A stretch of DNA of 64,000 nt from an uncultured Solirubrobacterales bacterium (GTDB lineage: Bacteria; Actinomycetota; Thermoleophilia; Solirubrobacterales; Solirubrobacteraceae), in contig CAVPLN010000019.1 in assembly GCA_963705995.1 (NCBI GenBank), positions 33,840 through 97,839 on the forward strand. Reading direction: 5' to 3'. Below the pieces are notes generated by a model. That model saw only the letters and a program-made list of their open reading frames with translations. It was not told the origin of the DNA and did no database searches. A program made the translations under genes and the position numbers. Shown here in pieces: positions 7,858-60,239 of the stretch (positions within the stretch are counted from its first letter, which is position 1; every line of letters begins with the position of its first letter).

Positions 7858-8250
7858 CTACGCGACCGGCTCGCCGAGCAGGCTCGCGACCGCGTGGTCG
7901 ACAGTGACGATCCCGTTTCCGGCCCCGATATGGACGACGGTCGGCTGGTAGTGGTCGAGCTCGTCGGGGTCGTAGCTCGCGTACGAGATCACGATCACCG
8001 TGTCGCCCTGATGGACCAGCCGGGCGGCCGCGCCGTTCACCTGGATCGTTCCCGATCCCGGCTCGCCGGCGATCGTGTAGGTCTCGAAGCGCGCGCCGTT
8101 GTCGACGTCGACGACCGCGACCTGCTCGAACTCGCGAATGTTCGCCGCCTCGAGCAGGTCGGCGTCGATCGTGATCGAGCCCACGTAGTGCAGGTCACAG
8201 CTGGTGACCGTGGCCCGGTGGATCTTCGACTTGAGCATCGTTCGATGCAT
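7858..8250 (-). CDS. panD: Aspartate 1-decarboxylase
   Basis: [22 protein letters not shown] (G-S cleavage site), [14 protein letters not shown]. Confidence 0.98.
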
Positions 8251-8263
8251 CTGGACTCCTCGT

Positions 8264-9178
8264 TCAGCTTCCCGCCGCGGTCGCGGGCACCCCGGGGGCC
8301 GGCCTTGCAGCCTGCGTTCCGGGGTCTCGCCTGGCGGTCGAGAGCGTGTGGTTGTCGATCAAACGGGTGGTCCCGACACGCGCCGCCACGACGGCGAGGG
8401 TCGGGCCATCCACCTCCAGAACCGGAGTCAGCGTGTCCGCTGAGACCAGCTCGAAGTACTCGGTCTCGACGCCCGCGGCGTCGAGTTCGGTGCGCGCCAG
8501 CGCGACCACCGCGGCGGCGTCGCGCTCGCCTGCGGTCACGGCTGCGTCAGCCGCGCGCAGCGCCCGGTGCAGCGCCGTGGCGCGCTCGCGCTCGTCACCG
8601 CGCAGAAGCGCGTTGCGGCTTGACATCGCCAGCCCGTCGGGTTCGCGGACGGTTGGGCACACATCGATCTGGATCGGCAGATCGAGGTCGCGCACGAGCC
8701 GCCGGACGACGAGCACCTGCTGGGCATCCTTCTGTCCGAAGTAGGCAACATCCGGCGCGACCACGTTGAAGAGCTTCGTGACGATCGTGGCGACGCCGTC
8801 GAAGTGCGCGCGGCCCCGGTGGATGCCCTCGAGCCGGTCGGTCAGCCCGGCGACCTGGACCGTCGTCGCGAACCCGGGCGGGTAGAGCTCGCTCGTCGCG
8901 GGCACGAACAGCAGGTTGACGCCGGCCTCCGCGGCGAGGGCCGCGTCGCGCGACTCATCGCGGGGGTAGGCATGGAGATCCGCGCGATCGGTGAACTGCG
9001 TCGGGTTCACGAACAGCGTCACGACGACTTCGTCGCAGTCGCGGCGGGCGCGGTGGATCAACGACAGGTGGCCCTCGTGAAACGCTCCCATCGTCGGCAC
9101 CAGCCCGATCCGGGCTCCGCTGCGGCGGGGTTGGGCAAGCGCCGCACGCAGCTCGGCCACAGTGCGGAGCGTCCTCAT
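8264..9178 (-). CDS. panC: Pantoate--beta-alanine ligase
   Basis: [47 protein letters not shown]. Confidence 0.98.
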
Positions 9179-46771: not shown

Positions 46772-48283
46772 TCAGTCCGCGTGTGCCGGGTGGGGCGCGG
46801 TGAGGTCGTGGCCGAACACCTTTCGGTAGGAGTCCTCGCCATAGCTCGTTGGTAGCGGTGGGGCGAGGGTGAGCGTGAACGGCCGGTCGCCGTCGTCGCC
46901 GCGTTCGGCGCGGAGGAACAGGGTTGGGCCTGGCGGCCGGCGGTGAAGGCTGTCGGCCAGATCGAAGAGGTGCGTCACGAACGCGATGCGGATTCCCGAG
47001 TCGAGCAGGGCGTGGATCACCTGGCGGGCGATCTCGGAGCCTTCGCGTTCGTTGGTGGCGGCGAAGGACTCGTTGCAGAGGAGGAGCGCACCGGGTCTGA
47101 TCGTGTCGGCGATCGTGCTCATGCGCGCCAGCTCTTCGTCGAGCTTGCCGCTCCGGAGAGCCACGTCCTCCTCGCGCTTGTAGTGGGTGAAGAGCCCGGA
47201 GGCGACGCTGGCGGTGAACGATTCGGCGAGCACGAACATCCCGGCTTGCATCATCAGCTGGGCGAGGCCGACGCTGCGCAGAAACGTTGACTTGCCGCCC
47301 TGGTTGGCGCCGGTGATCATCACCAGTTCGATCCCGTCGGCGGCGAGGTCGTTGGCGACAACGGGCGTCGCGACCGTCAACGTCAGCGAGACGTCGCGGA
47401 GCCCGGCGGCCGACAGCGTTCGCTCCGTGGGCGGGCGCGGGACTGGGACGCTCGGGCGCTCGCTCTTTGCGGCCAGCGCCTCGCTGAGGTTGAGACAGCC
47501 GACGTAGAAGGCGAGCTCGGTCCGGAGCGCGATGAAGAAGGCGAGCACGTGTTCGACCGATTGGGCGATCGCGTTCGCGACGAGGTTGGTCGCGCGGTCC
47601 TCGAGTTCCGAATAGGCCTGCATTCCGGCCTGGTCACGGCTGGAGATCGCGAAGCTGTAGCCCGAGCGGTCGAGCAGCCGCTCGAGCCGGCCCTGCCGCC
47701 GTGGGCGCCTGAGCTTGTAATCGGCGCCGCGATTGCCGGCCGTAAGTCCGGCGCTGACGAGCATCCCGTCCTTGAAGCGCAGCTCCTTGAGGTGCGCCTC
47801 GACGCGATCGAGGTAGTCCCCGCTGAGTTCGTCGCTGAGCATCGCGCACAGACGCTCCAGGCCCGCGGAGCCGAAGTGTGCGGCGTGTTCGTCGGCGAAC
47901 TCGCGGAGTTGCTCGAGGAACGCCGCGAGCAGTTCGAGCTTGCGCACCGACTGGCTGAGGACGGAGCTCGGGGAGTGGCTGAGCGATCCCCAAACGCTTC
48001 TCGGGGCGGCGAGCGCCTCGCCGGCGAGCGCGTACAGGAGGCGGATCGCGTCCGGGTGGGCGAGGCAGTCGGCGAGGATCGCCTGGCGGTAGCGGATCTC
48101 GTCAGGGTCGGTCAACGGCCTCAGCAGGGCGCGTTTGGCGACCTGCAGGACGAGGTTGTCCTCCTGCGCCATCGCCTCCCAGACGGTCTCCAGCTCAAGG
48201 TCGCTGGTGAGCTCCTCGGCGTTCGCCGGCAGCGGCAGCTCATACCCGAAGTCGCGGTCGGGGTGCATCAGCAGCACCCTCAC
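46772..48283 (-). CDS. MutS-related ATPase (domain V-containing, no mismatch-binding domain), subunit B
   Basis: ITGANQGGKSTFLRSVG.AQLM.QAG.FV, FTHY.REED, SGKLDEEL.RM, LCNESFAATN.REG, FVTHL. Confidence 0.88.
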   Translation of the reverse strand: MRVLLMHPDRDFGYELPLPANAEELTSDLELETVWEAMAQEDNLVLQVAKRALLRPLTDPDEIRYRQAILADCLAHPDAIRLLYALAGEALAAPRSVWGSLSHSPSSVLSQSVRKLELLAAFLEQLREFADEHAAHFGSAGLERLCAMLSDELSGDYLDRVEAHLKELRFKDGMLVSAGLTAGNRGADYKLRRPRRQGRLERLLDRSGYSFAISSRDQAGMQAYSELEDRATNLVANAIAQSVEHVLAFFIALRTELAFYVGCLNLSEALAAKSERPSVPVPRPPTERTLSAAGLRDVSLTLTVATPVVANDLAADGIELVMITGANQGGKSTFLRSVGLAQLMMQAGMFVLAESFTASVASGLFTHYKREEDVALRSGKLDEELARMSTIADTIRPGALLLCNESFAATNEREGSEIARQVIHALLDSGIRIAFVTHLFDLADSLHRRPPGPTLFLRAERGDDGDRPFTLTLAPPLPTSYGEDSYRKVFGHDLTAPHPAHAD

Positions 48284-49824
48284 GACGTGATCCGCCTCCG
48301 CAGGGCGTCGAAGCCGAGCCCATATTTGTCGGCGATCGCCGCTGCGTAAGCGAGACCGTCGGCGGCCCTGCGCACGACCTTGTAGGTCCGCACCGCAGGG
48401 TCGTCTGGATCCACGGTGCTGACCATGCTGACAACACTGTCTCCGGCTGTCGCCAGCTCGTCGATGAACGTGACGAACACGCAGAACGCGCCCAGTTCGA
48501 TGATTTGCTCCATCACGCGCGCGCCCACCAGCCGCGCGTCACGTAGGGTCGTCGAGCCGAAGGTCTCGTTCAGGATCAGGATGCTGTCCGCGGTCGCCTG
48601 GGCGAGGATCAGGCGGATGCGAGCGAGCTCGTCCTCGAACTTGCCACGCAGCGTGGCGATGTCCTCTTCACGCTCGAAGTGCGTGAAGATCCGGTCGGCC
48701 AGTTGCAGCTCCACCGCCGAGCCTGGGACCGGCAGGCCGAGACTCGCCAGATAGTGGAGCTGGCCGAACGTGCGCGCGAATGTCGTCTTGCCGCCGTTGT
48801 TCGGCCCGCTGACGACGATCACGCGTTCGTCGTCACCGAGCTCCAGATCGTTGCCGACGACGTCTGCGCCCTCGAGGACGAGCCGACGTGCCAGTGCCAG
48901 ATCGAACGTCGCCCTGGCCCGTACGGCGCCGGCTCGCCGCGAGACGCTCGGTTCCGTGAACGCAAGGCCCGCGTTCCGGAGTGGCGTGATCAGCTCGAGA
49001 TAGGCCAGGTAGAACTGGACCTCGCGGTCGAACCTTGCCACACCCGTGTCGAGGTAGCCTCTCTGCACCGTGCAGAATCGCTCGAGCGCGGCGAACGTCT
49101 CCCGGTGCAGCTCGGCGACGTAGTCGAGGATCTGGCTCTCGACGTGGTTGAGCTCGGGACGCTCGTTGAACCTCACCCGGTGATCCTTGACGGCGCCCTG
49201 CGCGAACTTCGCGAAGGTGTCCTGCACCTCTGCGCTGACGTCGGGGCGCTCCTCCGGCGCGAGCACGCGCACCTGCAGGCCCTTGAGGTGGATCATGTAG
49301 TGCGTTGCGGCGAGGCGGCGCTCGAGCTCCTCAACCTCCGCTCGCAGTGAGCGGAAGGACGCAGAGCCGCAGAGCCGCGCGACGTGGTCACGCACGCGGC
49401 ACAAGCCCTCGGAGCCGAGCGCCAGGCCCGCGAGTTGCTCGTCCAGCGATCCGACCGCAGCGCAGTAGACAGCAACCGCCTCCAGGAGCCAGCGCTGCTT
49501 CTGTCGGGCGTAGTGGAGCTTGCGCACGAACGCGAGGCAGCGCCGCATCGATCGCATCCGCTCGGCGAAGGAGCGAACAGCGGCCTGCACCTCCTCGCGC
49601 TCGAGATCGCGCACCACTAGCTGCCGATAGGAGACCGAGTCCGGGTCGCGCAGCGGTTGATGCAGCAGTGGTGCAAGCTCGTACTCGTCGCGCCCCTCGA
49701 CGAGCCATCCGACGATCTCGTCCAGGTGCAGGTCGCCGAAGCAGTCGGGTTCGTGCACAGGCAGCGCGGCCTCCGGTTCGCGGTCGAACAGGATGCTGAC
49801 TGTCAGCGACGGATCAGATGACAC
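48280..49824 (-). CDS. MutS-related ATPase (domain V-containing, no mismatch-binding domain), subunit A
   Basis: VSGPNNGGKTTFAR..GQ..YLA.LG.PVP, IFTHFEREED, GKFEDEL.RI, ILNETFGSTT, GLAYA.AIA.KYGL. Confidence 0.88.
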   Translation of the reverse strand: MSSDPSLTVSILFDREPEAALPVHEPDCFGDLHLDEIVGWLVEGRDEYELAPLLHQPLRDPDSVSYRQLVVRDLEREEVQAAVRSFAERMRSMRRCLAFVRKLHYARQKQRWLLEAVAVYCAAVGSLDEQLAGLALGSEGLCRVRDHVARLCGSASFRSLRAEVEELERRLAATHYMIHLKGLQVRVLAPEERPDVSAEVQDTFAKFAQGAVKDHRVRFNERPELNHVESQILDYVAELHRETFAALERFCTVQRGYLDTGVARFDREVQFYLAYLELITPLRNAGLAFTEPSVSRRAGAVRARATFDLALARRLVLEGADVVGNDLELGDDERVIVVSGPNNGGKTTFARTFGQLHYLASLGLPVPGSAVELQLADRIFTHFEREEDIATLRGKFEDELARIRLILAQATADSILILNETFGSTTLRDARLVGARVMEQIIELGAFCVFVTFIDELATAGDSVVSMVSTVDPDDPAVRTYKVVRRAADGLAYAAAIADKYGLGFDALRRRITS

Positions 49825-54244: not shown

Positions 54245-54439
54245 CGGAGAATCTCCCGCGTTGGGTTGAACGAGCTGTTCAGAAGACCGCGCGGCGGGCG
54301 AAAACTAATCGGTGCGAACGCAAACGTGATCCGGACCGGGTGCGCCGCGCTCGCCGGCAGCATCGAGGGATCTCGGATCACCTCGGGGCCAGCGCCTCCA
54401 ACTGACCATCAGGCAGTCGGCAAAGCGCGCACCAACGCG

Positions 54440-54560
54440 AGAGCGCCCGGGTCGACGGCACATCCGCTCGGCCGCCGCGTTCCGGGTGGTGGTCGTCCCG
54501 TCAAGCGTCCTGGCGATCATCGCGTCATCGCAGGAGGCGAGGACCGTGGCCCGCAGGGCC
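54440..54560 (-). pseudogene. PAS-domain remnant
   Basis: VLASCDDAMIARTLDGTTTTRNAAAERM resembles the PAS N-terminus (SSDDAI..TLDG.ITSWN.AAERM); the frame then degenerates. Confidence 0.55.
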
Positions 54561-54757
54561 TCAGCCCAGCGGGCCTTCACAGACGGTGCCGTCAATCGAC
54601 TCCACGATCACGCCACCACTGCGGACCGCCGAACGCAGCGAACCGCCGCACGCGCCGGCGCTCGTGCGCGCCGGTCACGGCCTGCGGGATATGGTCTGCG
54701 CGAGCCGCTGATCCCTTGCGGGCGGCGCGCCGCGGCTCCCGCGAGGTCACGATGCCT

Positions 54758-55198
54758 TCACGCGAGCGCCGCGGCCTGTTCCTCGAACAGGGTGCTCGGT
54801 GTGAGCAGCATCACCAGTCGCTCGCCGAGCTTCGCGATCGCGCTGACAAGCGTCGCGTCGACGGCGTCGGGGGCGGCCTGGAGTTGGTCAGCCTCGATCG
54901 TCAGGACTTCCTCGACGCCGTCGACGATCATGCCGATCGTCTGTGCTGCGGTCTCGACGATCACGATCTTGGTGTGCTCGCCGATCTCGGTGTTGACGCC
55001 GAGCCGGGTCGCGAGGTCGTAGACGGGGATGATCCGCCCGCGGAGGCTGAACACGCCACGAAGCGCGTAGTCACTGGACGCGACAGAACGCGGTTGGGTG
55101 TAGCGGATGATCTCCTGGACCTGGGTGATCGGGAGCGCGTACTGCTCGGCGCCGAGCGTCACGACGACGACTTGGCGCGCCTGCGTTTCTTCAGCCAT
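54758..55198 (-). CDS. cheW: Chemotaxis coupling protein CheW
   Basis: YALPI.QVQEIIR, GV.SLRG.IIPV.DL..RLG, IG.IVD.V.EV. Confidence 0.93.
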   Translation of the reverse strand: MAEETQARQVVVVTLGAEQYALPITQVQEIIRYTQPRSVASSDYALRGVFSLRGRIIPVYDLATRLGVNTEIGEHTKIVIVETAAQTIGMIVDGVEEVLTIEADQLQAAPDAVDATLVSAIAKLGERLVMLLTPSTLFEEQAAALA

Positions 55199-55228
55199 CT
55201 GATTGCTCCGGTTCGGGTGTGCCGACCA

Positions 55229-55261
55229 GGGCGACCGCTGGGGTGAGGCGAGCGGTCGCCC
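55229..55261. terminator. Intergenic hairpin between mcp and cheW
   Basis: gggcgaccgct-N11-agcggtcgccc, perfect 11-bp stem. Confidence 0.5.
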
Positions 55262-55343
55262 GTTCCGTCGGCGTTGATTTCAGGTAGGTGGATTGAATGT
55301 CCGTGAGGCGGCCGAGCGCCTCGTTACCTGCGGGTTCCGTCGC

Positions 55344-56552
55344 TCACACAGAGAACCTCGCGACCATGCCCGCGAGCTCCTCGGCCGTGCCGGCCAGGGC
55401 CTGGCTGGTGCTGGCGATCTCCTGGCTGCTGGCGGCTGACTCTTCGGCGGAGGCGGACACCTGTTGGGTCGCGGCGCCGGTGCTGTCGGCGACCTCCGCG
55501 ACTACCTTCGCGGCTTCGTTGATCCGCTCGATGCACCCGCCGACGTCCTCGATGCTTGAGCTGAGCCCGTGGAATGCGTCGCTCGTCTGTCGAGCCGCGA
55601 CGGCGGCGGACTCGGCGAGCTTGCGGACCTCCTCGGCGACGACGGCGAAACCGCGACCCTGCTCGCCGGCGCGTGCGGCCTCGATCGCCGCGTTCAGCGC
55701 CAGCAGGTTGGTCTGGTCGGCGATCGCCCCGATCTGCCCGGTCAACGCGACGCCGTTGGCGGCCACCTCGCGCGCTCGGGCGGACAGCTCGACCGCCTCG
55801 TCGGTCACCTTCTGGACCTCGTGGATCATCCCGACCTGCTTCTCGGCGCCCTCGGCAACGCTGGTGGTCGCCTGCGCGATCTGGGAGATCGCCGCTCCGG
55901 TCTCCGTCGAGGACGCGGACATCTGCTGCGTCGCGCCCGTGACCTGGCTGGCGGTCGCGGAGATCTGGCCGATCATCGCGGCCAACTGGGCGCGCATGTC
56001 GTTGTAGGATCCGAGGCCGCCCTGCGCCTGGCCGAGCATCGTGTTGAACACGGTCCCCAACTCGCCGAGCTCCGCCCCGGATCGGGTCGTCAGGGGCTGG
56101 GTGACCGGGAGGGCCTCGACCGTCAGATCGCCGCTGGCTGCTGCCTTCAGACCTTCGCCGAGGCCCGCGAGACACTTATCTGACAGGCTGTGCAGCCGCT
56201 CGGTCAGCGGACCCAGGCACGACTGATCCCCCAGCGCCGCGCTCAGCTCCTCACGCAGTGCACCGTAGGCTTCAAGCGCCGCCTGTGCTTTCGCGAGCAT
56301 CGAGTTGAACAGCCTCACGAGCTCAGCCTGGTCCGGATCCTGGACCGCCATTTCGATCGGCGTGGTCACGGGCTGCACCTTGACGGTGAGATCACCGTCC
56401 ACCGCGTGGCGGAGCCCCTGGACGAGCCCCTCGAGACACTTGCCGTCAAGGCTCGTCAGCCGCTCGCTCAACAGTCGCGTCACCTGATCTCGCTCAACGC
56501 TCTTTGCGTCGTCAGCGACGACGCCACCAGCTCGCGAAAGAAACTTAGACAC
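55344..56552 (-). CDS. Soluble methyl-accepting chemotaxis protein with tandem HAMP-like repeats
   Basis: [38 protein letters not shown]; no TM segment; AAAGGAG RBS. Confidence 0.93.
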
Positions 56553-56901
56553 CGCTCATGCTCCTTTGGACTTCGGTCTGCTGCTTTGACTGGCTTCTCG
56601 TCAACAAGTCTCTGAAGAGCTCCACCGCTACTCCCTTTTTGTGAGTATTGTGGAGTGACCGTTACCGATCCCACCAGCGATGACTGATTCCTTGGCCGCC
56701 GCCGCCGAGCAATGCGCTGGCCTGCCCGCGCCGGGGTCCTGCTCTCATACATCGGTGCCAGCTCCGGATTGATGTATGTGCGACTTGGAGACCGCTGGCA
56801 CCAACCGCAGGTTGTTCCTGTGCTCGCGGTTGCAGATCTCAGCCCAGCGCCACTGACGCGCTGGCCCGCGTTGACACTCCCCACCCGCCTCGCAGGACTT
56901 G

Positions 56902-57445
56902 TCAGAGCCTGGCGCGCGCCGCTGGATTCGCGGCGAGCGCGCGCGTGTGTTGGACCAGGACCGCTGAGGTCAGGTGGTCGCTGGTGGTGGCTGTGGGGAT
57001 GGGGAGGTGCTCCTCGGCGAGTGACAGGCGATCGGCGAGCTGGCTGCATGCCAGTCGGTAGATCGCGACCGCGCTATCAAGGAGCTGATCCAGCAGGCCA
57101 ATCAGCCGCAGGGCAAGCTCGTATCGGGCGACCTGGCAGGCGCCGGCTGCGTCCGGACCCGCGCCGTGGCGGCTTGCCTGCTCAAGACAGGCGTCGATCG
57201 CCTCGACCGCGGTCGAGGCGTCGGCTGCGAGCGCATCGATGCTCACGGCGAGATCATCGAACCCGGACCAACCCTCGCCGGACGATTCGCCGATCAGGTG
57301 AACACGATCGGCCAGGCATCGGACCAGGCGCGCGGCGTCGGTCGCGTGCCGGTGCGCGGCGTTGAGATCCACGGCGTGCATCGGCGCTCACGCCGCCGGC
57401 GAGGAGCTGGTCACGATGATGGACGGGTTTCGCAAGGGAATGCAC
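56902..57445 (-). CDS. Hypothetical helical protein with weak resemblance to an MCP tip (probable frameshift near 57385)
   Basis: GAGGAG RBS before the GTG at 57445; main body is ORF 56902-57381 containing GEGWSGFDDLAVSIDALA. Confidence 0.45.
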
Positions 57446-57596
57446 GGTGGCTCCTCTGTGAACGCCTGGGCCCGCACGGCGCCGCCTCGGGCGACTGAGT
57501 CCTCAGACGCGAGCGCGGCGCCTGTCGAGTCGCGGGGCATGCCTCTGGTATCGGCTTTCGCGCGCAGCCGAACAGGGGTGATGTGGTCATCGCTCA

Positions 57597-57641
57597 TGTC
57601 AACCTCAGGTTGGCTGTCCGTCTGGTCCGCGCGGCTATATT
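57597..57641. promoter_or_regulatory. Divergent promoter region with a palindrome
   Basis: CAACCT-C-AGGTTG (57600-57612) overlaps a minus-strand TTGACA; TATATT (57636-57641) lies 9 nt before ATG 57651. Confidence 0.5.
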
Positions 57642-57650
57642 GTGGGCGTT

Positions 57651-59687
57651 ATGTTCCCGACGGGGGAGCCGATCCGGGCGCCCGAGCTCTCGGAGCTGGA
57701 GACGTTCGTGCTGGCGCTCGACGAAGGGAGCATCGCGCGGGCGGCCGGTCGGCTGAGGATCAGCTCGCAGGCGGCGGCGAAGCGGATTCGCCAGCTCGAG
57801 GTTCTCGCCCATGCGCCGCTGCTCGTGCGAGGGCGCCGGGGTGTCAGCGCGACGGAGATCGGGGCGCGCCTGTACCCGATCGCTTGCGAGTCGATCTCGC
57901 AGAGAGACCGCATTGTCGAGGCGCTTGCGGGTGCGCCGGCGCCGGACCCGCTGCGGATCGCAGGGATGCGTCAGCTGCTGGGTCGTGCGCCCGCTCCGCG
58001 CACCGAAGCGGAGTTCAAGACAACGGAGGCGGTTCTCGCGGCCATCTTTCACGGGACCTCGGAGGCGGTCGCGCTGACCCGAGTGGAGGACGGGCTGATC
58101 CGCGAGGTCAACGATGCGGCCGTGCGCCTGCTGGGATATCAGCAACGCGATCTGCGCGGGCGACTGGCGCCTGAGGTTCAGGTGTGGGACGACATCGGCC
58201 TGCGCGACGAGTGCGTCAGGCGGGCTGTCTCCAGCCGCGAGCCCCAGCACGCGGAGCTGGTTGTGCGCGCCCGCGGTGGTCATCGGTTGCTCGTCGCGGC
58301 GCGGTTCGAGGCGGTCGAGCTGGGCGGCAGCACCCATGTGCTCGTCACGCTCCGTGAGTTGCGAAGGCTTGACAGCGTGGCCACGCCTGTTGCGCGCCGC
58401 CGCGCCGACGAGCTCGTCGAGGAGCAGCTTGCTGCCAGCTTCTTCGAGGCGCTCTGCCGCGGAGTCCCCACGCAGGCGGAGGCCGCGGCCGAGGCGGCGC
58501 TCGATCAAGGCTTTGGCGTCGCTGCCGTCCATACGCAGCTGATCGAGCCGGCGATGCGATCGATCGGCGAGCTCTGGGAGCGCGGGAAGATCTCGGTCAG
58601 CGAGGAGCACCTCGCGACGGCCATCAGCCACGAGGTCGCGGCACGCATCTTCCCCCGCGGGCTCAGCGCCATGCCCGGAGCGCGGGAGCGGGTCATGATG
58701 ACCGCTATCCAGGGCGAGCAACACGTGCTTGGCCTGCGCCTGGCAGCCGACGTGCTGGAGTGCGCCGGCTATGACGTCCTCTACCTTGGAGCTGACGTGC
58801 CGCTCGACGCGCTGCTCGCGGCGTGTCGCATTCATCAGCCTGACGTTCTCGGATTCACGGTCAGCACCTGGCCGAACGTACCCACGATGATCTTGGCGAT
58901 CCACGAGATCATGCAGCTCGAGCAGCCGCCCAGAATCATGGTCGGGGGCCGCGCGGCCGTCCAGGCGATCACGCATGGCCTGAACGCTCCGATCGTCGAG
59001 CACGCCGATCAGATACTCGAGGTCGTTCGACAGCTGCTCGCGGGCCCGCCGCCCGAACACGTGATCTCCGCGGAGCTCGCCGCCAGGGTGCCGCTCCGCG
59101 ATCAGGCCGCCCCGGTCGGGACCGAACAGCTCGCAGCGATCGATGCCGCGTTCTCCGCGACCGCGTCGTTCGCCCGTGCCGGGGATGTGCGCGAGTCGCC
59201 GCGTGCCGCAGCCCCGATGGAGCGACTCGCCCACCAGGACGACCTCACTGGCCTTCATAACCGTCGCGCGTTCGACGACCGGCTGCAGGCGATCGCCCAG
59301 CACGGACCGCACAGCACGCTGCTGATGATCGGAATCGACACGCCCGGGTCGATCAACGACACCGGCGGCCGTCACGTCGGCGACGAGACATTGGTCGGTG
59401 TCGGTCGCGTCATCCTGGAGAGCATCCGTTCTGGTGAGTTCGCGGCTCGGATCGGCGGCGAGGAGTTCGTCGCGCTCCTCTCGGCGGTGACAGGTTCGGC
59501 AGCCGACGCGGTCGCTGAGCGAATCCGGGCGGCGGTCGCAGCCGCGTCGATCAGCCCCGCCGCGACCGTCAGCATCGGGATCGCCGAGGTCACCTCCGAC
59601 GCCAGGCAGGCCCGCGAGTCGGCCGACCGCGCGCTGAGTCTGGCCAGGGAGTCCGGCGGCAACCGCACAGCTCGACCGGAGCACTGA
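57651..59687 (+). CDS. LysR-HTH / PAS / cobalamin-binding (CarH-type) / GGDEF fusion protein
   Basis: LETFV...EGSI.RAA.RL.IS.QA..KRIRQLE......LL.RGRRGV..T..G; PAS (IFHGTSEAV..IREVNDAA..LLGY); W-x9-EH and EQHVLG; DDLTGLHNRRAF...ARIGGEEF. Confidence 0.88.
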   Translation: MFPTGEPIRAPELSELETFVLALDEGSIARAAGRLRISSQAAAKRIRQLEVLAHAPLLVRGRRGVSATEIGARLYPIACESISQRDRIVEALAGAPAPDPLRIAGMRQLLGRAPAPRTEAEFKTTEAVLAAIFHGTSEAVALTRVEDGLIREVNDAAVRLLGYQQRDLRGRLAPEVQVWDDIGLRDECVRRAVSSREPQHAELVVRARGGHRLLVAARFEAVELGGSTHVLVTLRELRRLDSVATPVARRRADELVEEQLAASFFEALCRGVPTQAEAAAEAALDQGFGVAAVHTQLIEPAMRSIGELWERGKISVSEEHLATAISHEVAARIFPRGLSAMPGARERVMMTAIQGEQHVLGLRLAADVLECAGYDVLYLGADVPLDALLAACRIHQPDVLGFTVSTWPNVPTMILAIHEIMQLEQPPRIMVGGRAAVQAITHGLNAPIVEHADQILEVVRQLLAGPPPEHVISAELAARVPLRDQAAPVGTEQLAAIDAAFSATASFARAGDVRESPRAAAPMERLAHQDDLTGLHNRRAFDDRLQAIAQHGPHSTLLMIGIDTPGSINDTGGRHVGDETLVGVGRVILESIRSGEFAARIGGEEFVALLSAVTGSAADAVAERIRAAVAAASISPAATVSIGIAEVTSDARQARESADRALSLARESGGNRTARPEH

Positions 59688-59807
59688 GCGGCCCTCTGCG
59701 TTCCCGCACGCCCTGCCGGCCGGCCCAGGCCGTGGTCAGCACCTCCATCTGCTTGTCATCCGTGCCGGCGGGCTCGCCTGGCCAAGGGGCACTACGCCGC
59801 CGGCATC

Positions 59808-60239
59808 GTGCTCGACGACGATCAGCCGATCCCGATCCTCGAGCCGGGCCCGATCGCCGGCGCCTCGACGGTGGGCGACGGCAGCCGGCTGGGGTTCACC
59901 GACATGCAGCAGAGCGCGCTGCGGGAGATCGCGAACGTCGGCTCGGGTCACGCCGCGACCGCCCTGTCCCAGCTGCTCGGCCGACCGGTCGAGATCGGCT
60001 ACTCCGAGGCGCTGCTCACTGTGCTCGCGGAGGCGATCGATCGCATCGGGGCGCCGATGAGCCGCTCCGCGCTCGTCGACACCCCAATCCATGCCGACGG
60101 CGGCACCGTGCTGCTGGTCTTCCCCGAGGACACCAGCGAGGAGCTGTGCCGGCTGCTCGGGACGAGCCTCGATGACGAGATCGGGCGCACCGCCCTCCAG
60201 GAGGTCGGAAACATCCTCGCCACGTCTAGCCGCGCCTAG
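59808..60239 (+). pseudogene. cheC: CheC-like phosphatase, 3'-truncated, with a possible CheA/CheW-like tail at its N-terminus
   Basis: ALREIANVGSGHAATALSQLLG and ALQEVGNIL (two ExxN motifs), with a stop right after the second. Confidence 0.75.

Follow-up and report, generated by a model that had tools for sequence, protein, structure and literature searches.

What does a protein do that carries a LysR-type DNA-binding head, a PAS domain, a B12 module of the CarH type, and a diguanylate cyclase (GGDEF) domain in a single chain? The question is raised by an open reading frame (ORF) in a 64,000-nucleotide (nt) stretch of DNA, here called the window, from an uncultured Solirubrobacterales bacterium (GenBank assembly GCA_963705995.1, contig CAVPLN010000019.1, positions 33,840 to 97,839 of the forward strand). 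We refer to the product of this ORF as P0001, to related proteins by other P numbers, to related loci by L numbers, and to the genome holding the window as G000. The original prediction, made from the letters alone, was that light- or B12-dependent oligomerization may control both DNA binding and the synthesis or sensing of cyclic di-GMP (c-di-GMP). The P0001 family is best read as a rare variant of the CarH-type kind of photoreceptor, with the dual-output idea belonging to the orthologs of P0001. P0001 itself has a complete B12 photoreceptor signature, a conserved head, a candidate operator before its gene, and a GGDEF domain that is very probably inactive.

A five-domain fusion with a CarH-type B12 module

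Five Pfam domains were matched above the curated cut-offs in the one open frame: HTH_1 (amino acids [aa] 14–71), PAS (130–235), B12-binding_2 (262–328), B12-binding (347–435), and GGDEF (527–672). The Pfam scan gave no match to a LysR substrate-binding domain at E ≤ 0.1, as expected from the original description of a LysR-type helix-turn-helix (HTH) without its effector domain, and none to a MerR-type DNA-binding domain. A biliverdin-binding globin is also absent by Pfam and the structural model, with only PAS and linkers between the domains. The same domain order is common to P0002–P0007, six other 90%-identity clusters found among the best 8000 candidates of 372–1187 aa, which align colinearly with 58–64% identity over 95–99% of P0001. 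Soil-run contigs are identical to the window letter for letter over 57698–58287, 58665–58815, and 59129–59350, and they cover the junction between HTH and PAS, the A517P substitution, and the codons of GIDTPG (the last near a contig end); no single soil contig spans the PAS-B12 or B12-linker junction or the whole gene, and soil run X1 is possibly related to the source sample of the window. The six colinear homologs and the matching contigs rule out an assembly chimera, a concern attached to the original prediction, and the five-domain fusion is real, intact, and rare. All sequencing runs that contain the window stretch are soil metagenomes, with no RNA run listed among them. An AlphaFold model of P0001 from a 30-row alignment (mean predicted local distance difference test score 74.6, predicted template modeling score 0.40) has folded modules joined by low-confidence linkers (aa 89–129, 242–252, and 483–523), and the packing of the domains is therefore not readable from it. 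Feature coordinates are collected in Table 1.

Table 1. Features of the fusion gene and its surroundings, in window positions.
Feature	Position	Strand	Basis
ORF P0001, 678 aa (LysR-type winged HTH + linker helix, PAS, CarH-type B12 module, decayed GGDEF)	57651..59687	+	one open frame, Pfam, model
LysR-type winged HTH (aa 14–71) and linker helix (to about aa 94)	57690..57932	+	Pfam HTH_1 E 2.7e-12, BenM alignment, model
PLRIAG, putative vestige of where the lost LysR effector domain began (truncation point)	57948..57965	+	colinear match to P-[VI]-[RE]-[LIV]-A in full-length LysR proteins of the order
PAS domain (aa 130–235)	58038..58355	+	Pfam; generic PAS matches, top Z about 16
B12 cap four-helix bundle, G306xxW309, V316, E319-H320 (W-x9-EH 58575–58610)	58434..58634	+	Pfam PF02607, alignment
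B12 Rossmann domain, G355-E-Q-H358-x-x-G361 (58713–58733), G380xxxP384 (58788–58802)	58689..58955	+	Pfam PF02310, alignment
Linker and predicted signaling helix into GGDEF, prolines 517 and 522	59097..59228	+	alignment, model
GGDEF domain, GGEEF 59454–59468; D561G (59331), F565P, K566G, H574R, K666R; inhibitory (I) site RxxE	59229..59666	+	Pfam, alignment
Palindrome AACC-TCA-GGTT (flanks C and G), candidate operator	57601..57611	.	exact match, counted across related loci
TATATT, candidate −10 box, 9 nt before ATG, leaderless-type layout	57636..57641	+	sequence comparison
Second exact palindrome CAACC-GCA-GGTTG, about 250 nt upstream of divergent mcp	56803..56813	.	sequence match
orf159, helical protein, divergent from P0001	56902..57381	−	homologs near fusion gene in L021, L102, L107
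Methyl-accepting chemotaxis protein (MCP), candidate divergent target	55344..56552	−	Pfam
CheW, candidate divergent target	54758..55198	−	Pfam
CheW-CheC gene fragment, cut at both ends	59808..60239	+	Pfam; whole paralog G000:C36:589547–590554

The two diagnostic motifs of the B12 module, W309-x9-E319-H320 and E356-x-H358-x-x-G361, lie exactly at the positions first reported for them (58575–58610 and 58716–58733), as does the GGEEF motif. The module belongs, as had been proposed, with the CarH-type B12 photosensors: every one of the 30 aligned rows has all four elements of the B12 photoreceptor signature defined in PMC11796333 (GxxW, EH, GxxH, and GxxxP). P0001 matched TtCarH (phmmer E 6e-18) and the NCBIfam CarH family (E 7e-22), scoring 78 bits against the 400-bit cut-off of the CarH equivalog and thus falling below it, and its modeled module matched the CarH, CtMerR, and photocobilin structures (8JBS, 5C8D, and 8J2W). 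Like CarH/LitR proteins (TtCarH 5C8D; CtMerR 8JBS), P0001 joins a cap and Rossmann B12 module to an N-terminal DNA-binding domain, and W131, V138, E141, H142, and H177 of CarH correspond to W309, V316, E319, H320, and H358. The equivalents of D201 (D382) and G192 (G373) are kept in 30/30 and 29/30 rows. Unlike CarH/LitR, P0001 has a LysR-type rather than a MerR-type HTH, extra PAS and GGDEF domains, and neighboring chemotaxis and c-di-GMP genes instead of carotenoid genes.

Two functional positions differ from CarH. In CarH, R176 and D201 form the head-to-tail dimer salt bridge, G192 is the tetramer glycine, and H132 is the light-state histidine (PMC8221060). The R176 position (357) holds H in 17, Q in 10, R in 2, and E in 1 of the 30 rows (Q357 in P0001), and the H132 position (310) is never H (E310 in P0001). 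Among the proteins tested in one study, the four that bear the signature responded to green light and the one signature-less control did not; CtMerR, SasPcob, and AbDPcob responded without H132, CtMerR passing from tetramer to monomer in light and AbDPcob being a dimer in dark and light (PMC11796333). Photochemistry is therefore likely in P0001, and its oligomer behavior may be that of either CtMerR or AbDPcob. G000 encodes a PduO-family adenosyltransferase and has eight B12-binding matches, so that adenosylcobalamin (AdoCbl) is plausibly available in the host. By analogy with these proteins, P0001 very likely binds AdoCbl and photolyses it; CarH-like light-driven switching of its oligomeric state is questionable, given Q357 and E310.

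The modeled head matched OxyR at Z 15.6 and the BenM DNA-binding domain at Z 14.6. Over its first 105 aa, P0001 runs colinear with a full-length LysR protein that is widespread in the order, as far as P-x-R-x-A; there it continues into PAS and not into an effector domain. Both the HTH and the B12 domains are under purifying selection, with nonsynonymous to synonymous rate ratios (dN/dS) of about 0.2–0.4 and no signature residue lost; for the HTH the ratios were 0.18–0.32 in four pairs including P0001 and 0.18–0.40 across all ten pairs computed. The HTH thus conserved probably binds DNA, an idea that gains from a candidate operator at 57601–57611, inside the region 57446–57650 proposed earlier for binding assays. 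Fold searches with the PAS model gave tied generic PAS matches and no cofactor or ligand assignment.

Fusions of B12 sensor domains to an HTH or a cyclase have already been published (PMC11796333; PMC10979010; PMC8717448), as has light control of a B12-fused cyclase, AbDPcob (PMC10979010). The partners listed in PMC8717448 include MerR-HTH, HTH_17, ANTAR, PAS, and GGDEF; the word "LysR" does not appear there. We found no LysR-HTH and B12 fusion and no LysR-HTH-PAS cap in the literature searched or among the PMC11796333 supplement terms, a scope that left out subscription papers and the figures and network of PMC11796333. The statement that the architecture had not been described thus holds for that literature, in which the characterized B12 photoreceptor transcription factors use a MerR-type head; a LysR-headed one would be new.

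Probable decay of the GGDEF domain and history of the family

The degenerate features first noted in the cyclase (GIDTPG, ARESGGN, and the I-site R593-S-G-E596) are all present, and comparison with relatives separates those private to P0001 from those it shares. All of the 47 other GGDEF-bearing rows retain K666, and 46 of them retain D561, K566, and H574, the remaining row being gapped there; P0001 alone has G, G, R, and R at these positions. Under PleD numbering, assigned by motif position, D327 has become G561, the K332 position G566, K442 R666, and R446 G670. PleD D327, N335, and D344 are reported to be essential, with D327 binding magnesium (PMC7288161). GIDTPG is private to P0001, and GGN and RxxE/G are common to all five-domain orthologs. 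The linker prolines 517 and 522 are missing from the six orthologs, A517P lying in the helix that leads into GGDEF. Kept in P0001 are GGEEF, N569 and D578 (the N335 and D344 equivalents), R593, and R626. One result runs against decay: the GGDEF dN/dS of pairs with P0001 (0.48–0.55) is not clearly higher than that between orthologs (0.40–0.56). The case for a dead cyclase therefore rests on which residues changed, since the domain-wide ratio does not single P0001 out. An active cyclase was rejected on residue grounds, with the metal-binding aspartate and other near-invariant positions lost, and the P0001 cyclase is very probably inactive.

For P0001, c-di-GMP synthesis as first proposed is thus not supported, given D561G, F565P, K566G, H574R, and K666R, which remove near-invariant residues, and A517P in the lead-in helix. 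Sensing is weakly supported: R593 and R626 (the R390 equivalent) are kept, and weak c-di-GMP binding at the altered I-site is possible, against which stands E596. The RxxD motif survives in 40 of 41 B12-GGDEF rows but in none of the six five-domain orthologs; the sole B12-GGDEF row without it, P0015, is a 5'-cut member of the five-domain clade. In all six orthologs, the R390 and R446 equivalents are lost as well, and the intact orthologs may be feedback-insensitive or weakened cyclases. The combined DNA and cyclase output fits the intact orthologs P0002–P0007 better than P0001, whose catalytic residues are lost. A precedent for them is AbDPcob (8J2Y), in which a CarH-type B12 module is likewise fused to a diguanylate cyclase; light raises its cyclase turnover >10-fold and AdoCbl binding alone lowers its activity (PMC10979010). 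Unlike P0001, AbDPcob has a biliverdin-binding globin and no described HTH or PAS, and P0001 lacks the globin and the catalytic residues. By analogy, the chances that the intact orthologs are light-activated cyclases appear evenly balanced.

The related loci were retrieved by an alignment-based scan, a single-protein query having given none. No HTH-PAS ortholog was found in 400 other genomes of the order, where 19 matches were to the HTH of full-length LysR genes; with an HTH-PAS profile, a single genome besides G000 gave a full-length match among 400 of the family, and likewise one among 400 of the class. Five layouts were distinguished: B12-GGDEF, HTH-PAS alone (about 230–270 aa), HTH-PAS-B12-GGDEF, HTH-PAS-B12, and HTH-B12. 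For the B12 domain, a careful tree of 34 rows, with seven distant B12-GGDEF rows as its root, left out 32 of the 66 rows of a quick tree, namely near-duplicates, two partial sequences, the long-branch CarH row, and most of the distant B12-GGDEF rows. In it, the 19 rows that carry an HTH all fall into a single clade (99/97) within the B12-GGDEF proteins, with the GGDEF-less P0008/P0010 as the sister of P0001 (100/97). A topology constrained to group the 13 HTH rows that lack GGDEF was rejected (approximately unbiased test, p 0.0003), the group being defined by architecture but after the trees were seen. In an HTH-only tree, standalone HTH-PAS lies outside the B12 forms with weak support (82/86; the bootstrap had not settled). 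On the simplest reading, a truncated LysR-PAS head was fused once onto a B12-GGDEF protein, after which GGDEF was lost repeatedly and PAS once; a predicted light-controlled enzyme was likely rebuilt several times into a light-sensing gene regulator.

Several loci (L022, L023, L104, L105, L025, L028, L029, and L043) end at stops inside the locus, and some GGDEF-less proteins on short contigs could be cut. In L021, a TAG directly after B12 is followed by an in-frame GGDEF with six changes at conserved columns, which by its sequence is GGDEF loss in progress. The P0001 cyclase is probably a dying remnant that marks a stage on the way to the GGDEF-less proteins of the sister clade. The family would thus display domain shuffling in progress, from B12-GGDEF and HTH-PAS through the five-domain fusion, the dying-cyclase copy (P0001), and the stop-before-cyclase copy to HTH-PAS-B12 and HTH-B12.

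The HTH-PAS cap is broader than the B12 forms. In a search of 1.8 billion representatives, 16 of 19 matches chosen for scanning were HTH_1 plus PAS, including GAF-PAS-kinase-REC (P0180) and GAF-PAS-GGDEF-EAL (P0215) fusions, and an AKR/TKR recognition-helix pattern was present in 29 of 35 HTH-covering matches (6 were not parsed). G000 has a second capped gene, an HTH-PAS-GAF-PAS-GGDEF-EAL gene of 1134 aa at C38:91215–94619 (L158, L159; region from 91159), with the palindrome GGGAACC-TAC-GGTTCTC upstream. Compact LysR-HTH-B12 proteins of about 320–350 aa (P0121–P0129 and P0135; L025, L028, L029, and L043 around 8001–9010) have neither PAS nor GGDEF; their genes follow a reverse-strand tRNA-like sequence (read by eye) and have no exact box of the kind described below.

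A candidate operator and proposed light-relieved self-repression

The sequence AACC-N3-GGTT was first spotted by eye in upstream sequences and then counted. Exact copies are present upstream in the window and in 8 of 19 related loci (L021, L024, L030, L101, L102, L103, L106, and L107; seven distinct, as L103 duplicates L102), with L108 having only 67 nt upstream, and all of them end 64–75 nt before the codon for E12. The exact palindrome precedes 13 of 4959 predicted genes and none of 10 ordinary LysR genes of G000; a binomial P of 1e-14 overstates the contrast, since the loci are kin. All seven loci that have, or visibly once had, a five-domain gene are preceded by the exact box, and its symmetry is kept while the flanks vary (C/G, A/T, and G/C). 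Two distant HTH-PAS genes outside the motif-defining set, G000:C38 and L118, both have G-AACC-N3-GGTT-C 57 nt upstream. A hexamer TA(T/C)(A/G)(T/A/G)T lies 36–45 nt before the E12 codon in 19/19 related loci. In L021 and L102, the right arm of the palindrome overlaps a TTGACA-17-TATATT promoter, that is, its −35 element, and a self-repression layout is therefore suggested. Two back-to-back −35 elements were rejected as an explanation of the palindrome: neither L021 nor L102 has a promoter on the minus strand, and TTGAC is missing from the G-AACC and A-AACC variants.

The box may have come with the head. LysR-type boxes are T-N11-A dyads (PMC11495319). Among 48 relatives of the full-length LysR type, the core is exact in 2 and has one mismatch in 7; in 7 of these 9 it is flanked by T and A and directly adjoins the start codon (for this count, three TKR rows and L148 were re-sorted by hand). 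Three more distant metagenome LysR loci (L114, L116, and L117) have the exact core. Because full-length LysR relatives carry the same core with T/A flanks, we take AACC-N3-GGTT to be an inherited T-N11-A site. T/A flanks are kept in 0 of 10 distinct exact sites before capped genes, and the window has C/G. The recognition helix has changed too: SSQAAAKRI replaces AQPPLSRQI of BenM, with A28-Q29-P30-P31-L32-S33-R34-Q35 aligned to S38-S39-Q40-A41-A42-A43-K44-R45. We infer that the loss of T/A flanks parallels this change, and the parental and derived boxes would make a natural test of the way T-N11-A is read by LysR proteins. P0001 is like the LysR regulators BenM, OxyR, and CbnR in its winged HTH and linker helix (Z 14.6–15.6); its candidate dyad has the length (13 bp) and the place, at the own promoter, of a LysR box, and it too has divergent neighbors (PMC11495319). 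It is unlike them in its missing effector domain, its helix (S-x-x-A-x-A-K-R instead of S-Q-P-A-L-S-K-R), and the non-T/A flanks of its box. By this comparison the P0001 head is likely to bind the candidate box. As a side observation, the order's common full-length LysR gene (L002, L006, L008, L143, L144, L152, and L153) has a T-AACC-N3-GGTT-A-like box abutting its start codon, and in G000 this LysR gene lies immediately in front of genes resembling purC, purQ, and purL (read by eye).

On balance we lean toward the reading that P0001 is an AdoCbl-dependent green-light sensor that binds AACC-N3-GGTT before its own gene and represses it. The LysR head would dimerize via its linker helix and bind the box, while AdoCbl would be held base-off by H358 and capped by W309, V316, E319, and H320. 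Light would break the Co-C bond and move the cap bundle, and the change would pass via PAS to the HTH pair and loosen DNA binding, a direction borrowed from CarH. Relief of self-repression by light is, on this analogy, slightly better than an even prospect. The divergent orf159, mcp, and cheW genes would be the likely second target, linking light to motility. Where orthologs still have an intact GGDEF, c-di-GMP synthesis would be turned on as well by this movement, in the manner of AbDPcob.

Parts of this scheme have parallels. PpsR with AerR/PpaA is a PAS-containing DNA-binding repressor controlled by a B12-binding module, in two proteins and with a C-terminal HTH. The P0001 PAS model reaches Z 16.1 against the PAS domains of PpsR, a value that other PAS domains share, and P0001 differs in being one chain with an N-terminal LysR head. 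PdeL of E. coli, a trigger phosphodiesterase, combines an HTH and a c-di-GMP enzyme in one chain and binds a palindrome upstream of its own gene (PMC5052742), where P0001 has its candidate palindrome. PdeL is a LuxR-HTH plus EAL protein that activates itself (PMC5052742), unlike P0001 with its LysR head, cyclase domain, and B12 sensor between. A wider proposal, which we hold only tentatively, is that the family arose independently as a second class of light-controlled B12 transcription factors, with a LysR in place of a MerR head, and that its intact members are single-chain "trigger cyclase" switches that release their own promoter and start c-di-GMP synthesis, steering a flagellated actinobacterium toward swimming or settling, with the HTH-PAS cap, its helix and box re-specified, a portable autoregulation module found also on histidine kinases and GGDEF-EAL proteins.

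Several observations weigh against the self-repressing light sensor. The Gln and Ser usual in LysR recognition helices are missing. No exact box lies upstream of the HTH-PAS gene L148, of the four complete GGDEF-less HTH-PAS-B12 loci (L022 has one mismatch, L023 two mismatches at the expected place, and L104 and L105 no box), or of the five HTH-B12 loci. A promoter scan of the window gave no full −35/−10 pair, the −35 being non-canonical. The core is not enriched genome-wide in G000, with 60 sites (20 intergenic) against 22–51 (9–17) for other spacers, and a genome-wide regulon built on it was dropped, the site count being near those counts. A 724-bp segment (56891–57614) that includes orf159 and the operator is 99% identical to C4:373190–373913, where there is no fusion gene. 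Finally, P0130, a 78%-identical relative, is frameshifted, so the whole gene is possibly decaying.

The last point bears on an explanation that we regard as unlikely, in which P0001 is a mostly non-functional relic in a rearranged region, its head at most a dimerization module and the palindrome inherited promoter sequence. The gene is rare and patchy (0/400 order genomes and 1/400 family genomes), several relatives are broken (a stop in L021, frameshifts in L058, L106, and P0130), and the neighboring cheW-cheC gene is a fragment; purifying selection on HTH and B12, complete signature residues, and a palindrome symmetric despite flank change speak for a working protein. An equally improbable alternative makes the B12 module a sensor of cobalamin supply or redox and not of light, with AdoCbl loading or a PAS ligand setting DNA binding in seldom-lit organisms. 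It would suit a stretch found in soil metagenome runs only, a genome (G000, 83% complete) without a detected phytoene synthase, in which the classic CarH output is not evident, the absent bis-His residue of CarH, and the lower activity of AbDPcob with AdoCbl alone (PMC10979010). The full photoreceptor signature is invariant, however, and CtMerR, SasPcob, and AbDPcob lack H132 and still respond to light (PMC11796333); in any case, a dependence on light and one on AdoCbl supply do not exclude each other.

A working dual output from P0001 itself is likewise improbable; here DNA binding and c-di-GMP would both be under the control of light or B12, the latter output through slow synthesis or through GTP or c-di-GMP binding at the degenerate GGDEF. 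Its frame is intact to the end, the GGDEF folds at high confidence, N569, D578, GGEEF, R593, and R626 are kept, and degenerate GGDEF domains can be c-di-GMP effectors (PMC5052742). Against this stand the loss of the metal-binding Asp and of the equivalents of K332 and K442, an I-site with the sequence RxxE, and a proline within the coupling helix; apart from the I-site, these changes are private to P0001 and unconserved, which decay fits better than new function. If the self-repressing light sensor is correct, optogenetics would gain an orthogonal repressor that responds to green light, with AACC-N3-GGTT as its short predicted operator; the compact HTH-B12 forms of the family have 320–348 aa.

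Genomic context

MCP and/or CheW genes are divergent in L021, L102, and the window, and L101 has an MCP-like N-terminus (by eye); flagellins are encoded in G000. The product of orf159 had no Pfam match and no Atlas match. In the C4 copy, orf159 precedes a PAS-GGDEF-EAL gene, and the duplication ends just after the palindrome. Window positions 55002–56495 and 59775–60226 (cheW-mcp and cheC) are 86–96% identical to G000:C36:587588–590295, a locus that lacks the fusion gene and has a whole cheW-cheC gene; for the mcp and cheC flanks the identity is about 95%. The P0001 locus is a rearranged patchwork, and targets beyond P0001 itself are therefore no more than candidates. Control of the divergent chemotaxis genes by P0001 is, by analogy, conceivable but doubtful; it would suggest light-linked motility control in a barely studied actinobacterial group.

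G000 also has a separate, ordinary MerR-B12 CarH-type gene (C8:83826–84743, L160) beside a flavin oxidoreductase-like gene, and phytoene synthase was not found in this 83%-complete genome. After the B12 genes of L022 (2020–2747), L023 (9569–10227), and L021 (13459–15357) lie an ABM-family gene and a gene for a small globin-like protein, possibly a heme-degrading enzyme and a photoglobin; the best profile match was allophycocyanin at E 0.56, and this assignment is not established. Downstream of cheW in the window, a short ORF (54305–54595, minus strand) has the look of a decayed PAS domain and no Pfam match. At 46772–49824 (minus strand), two tandem proteins of ~500 aa with P-loop motifs appear to resemble MutS-like ATPase domains.

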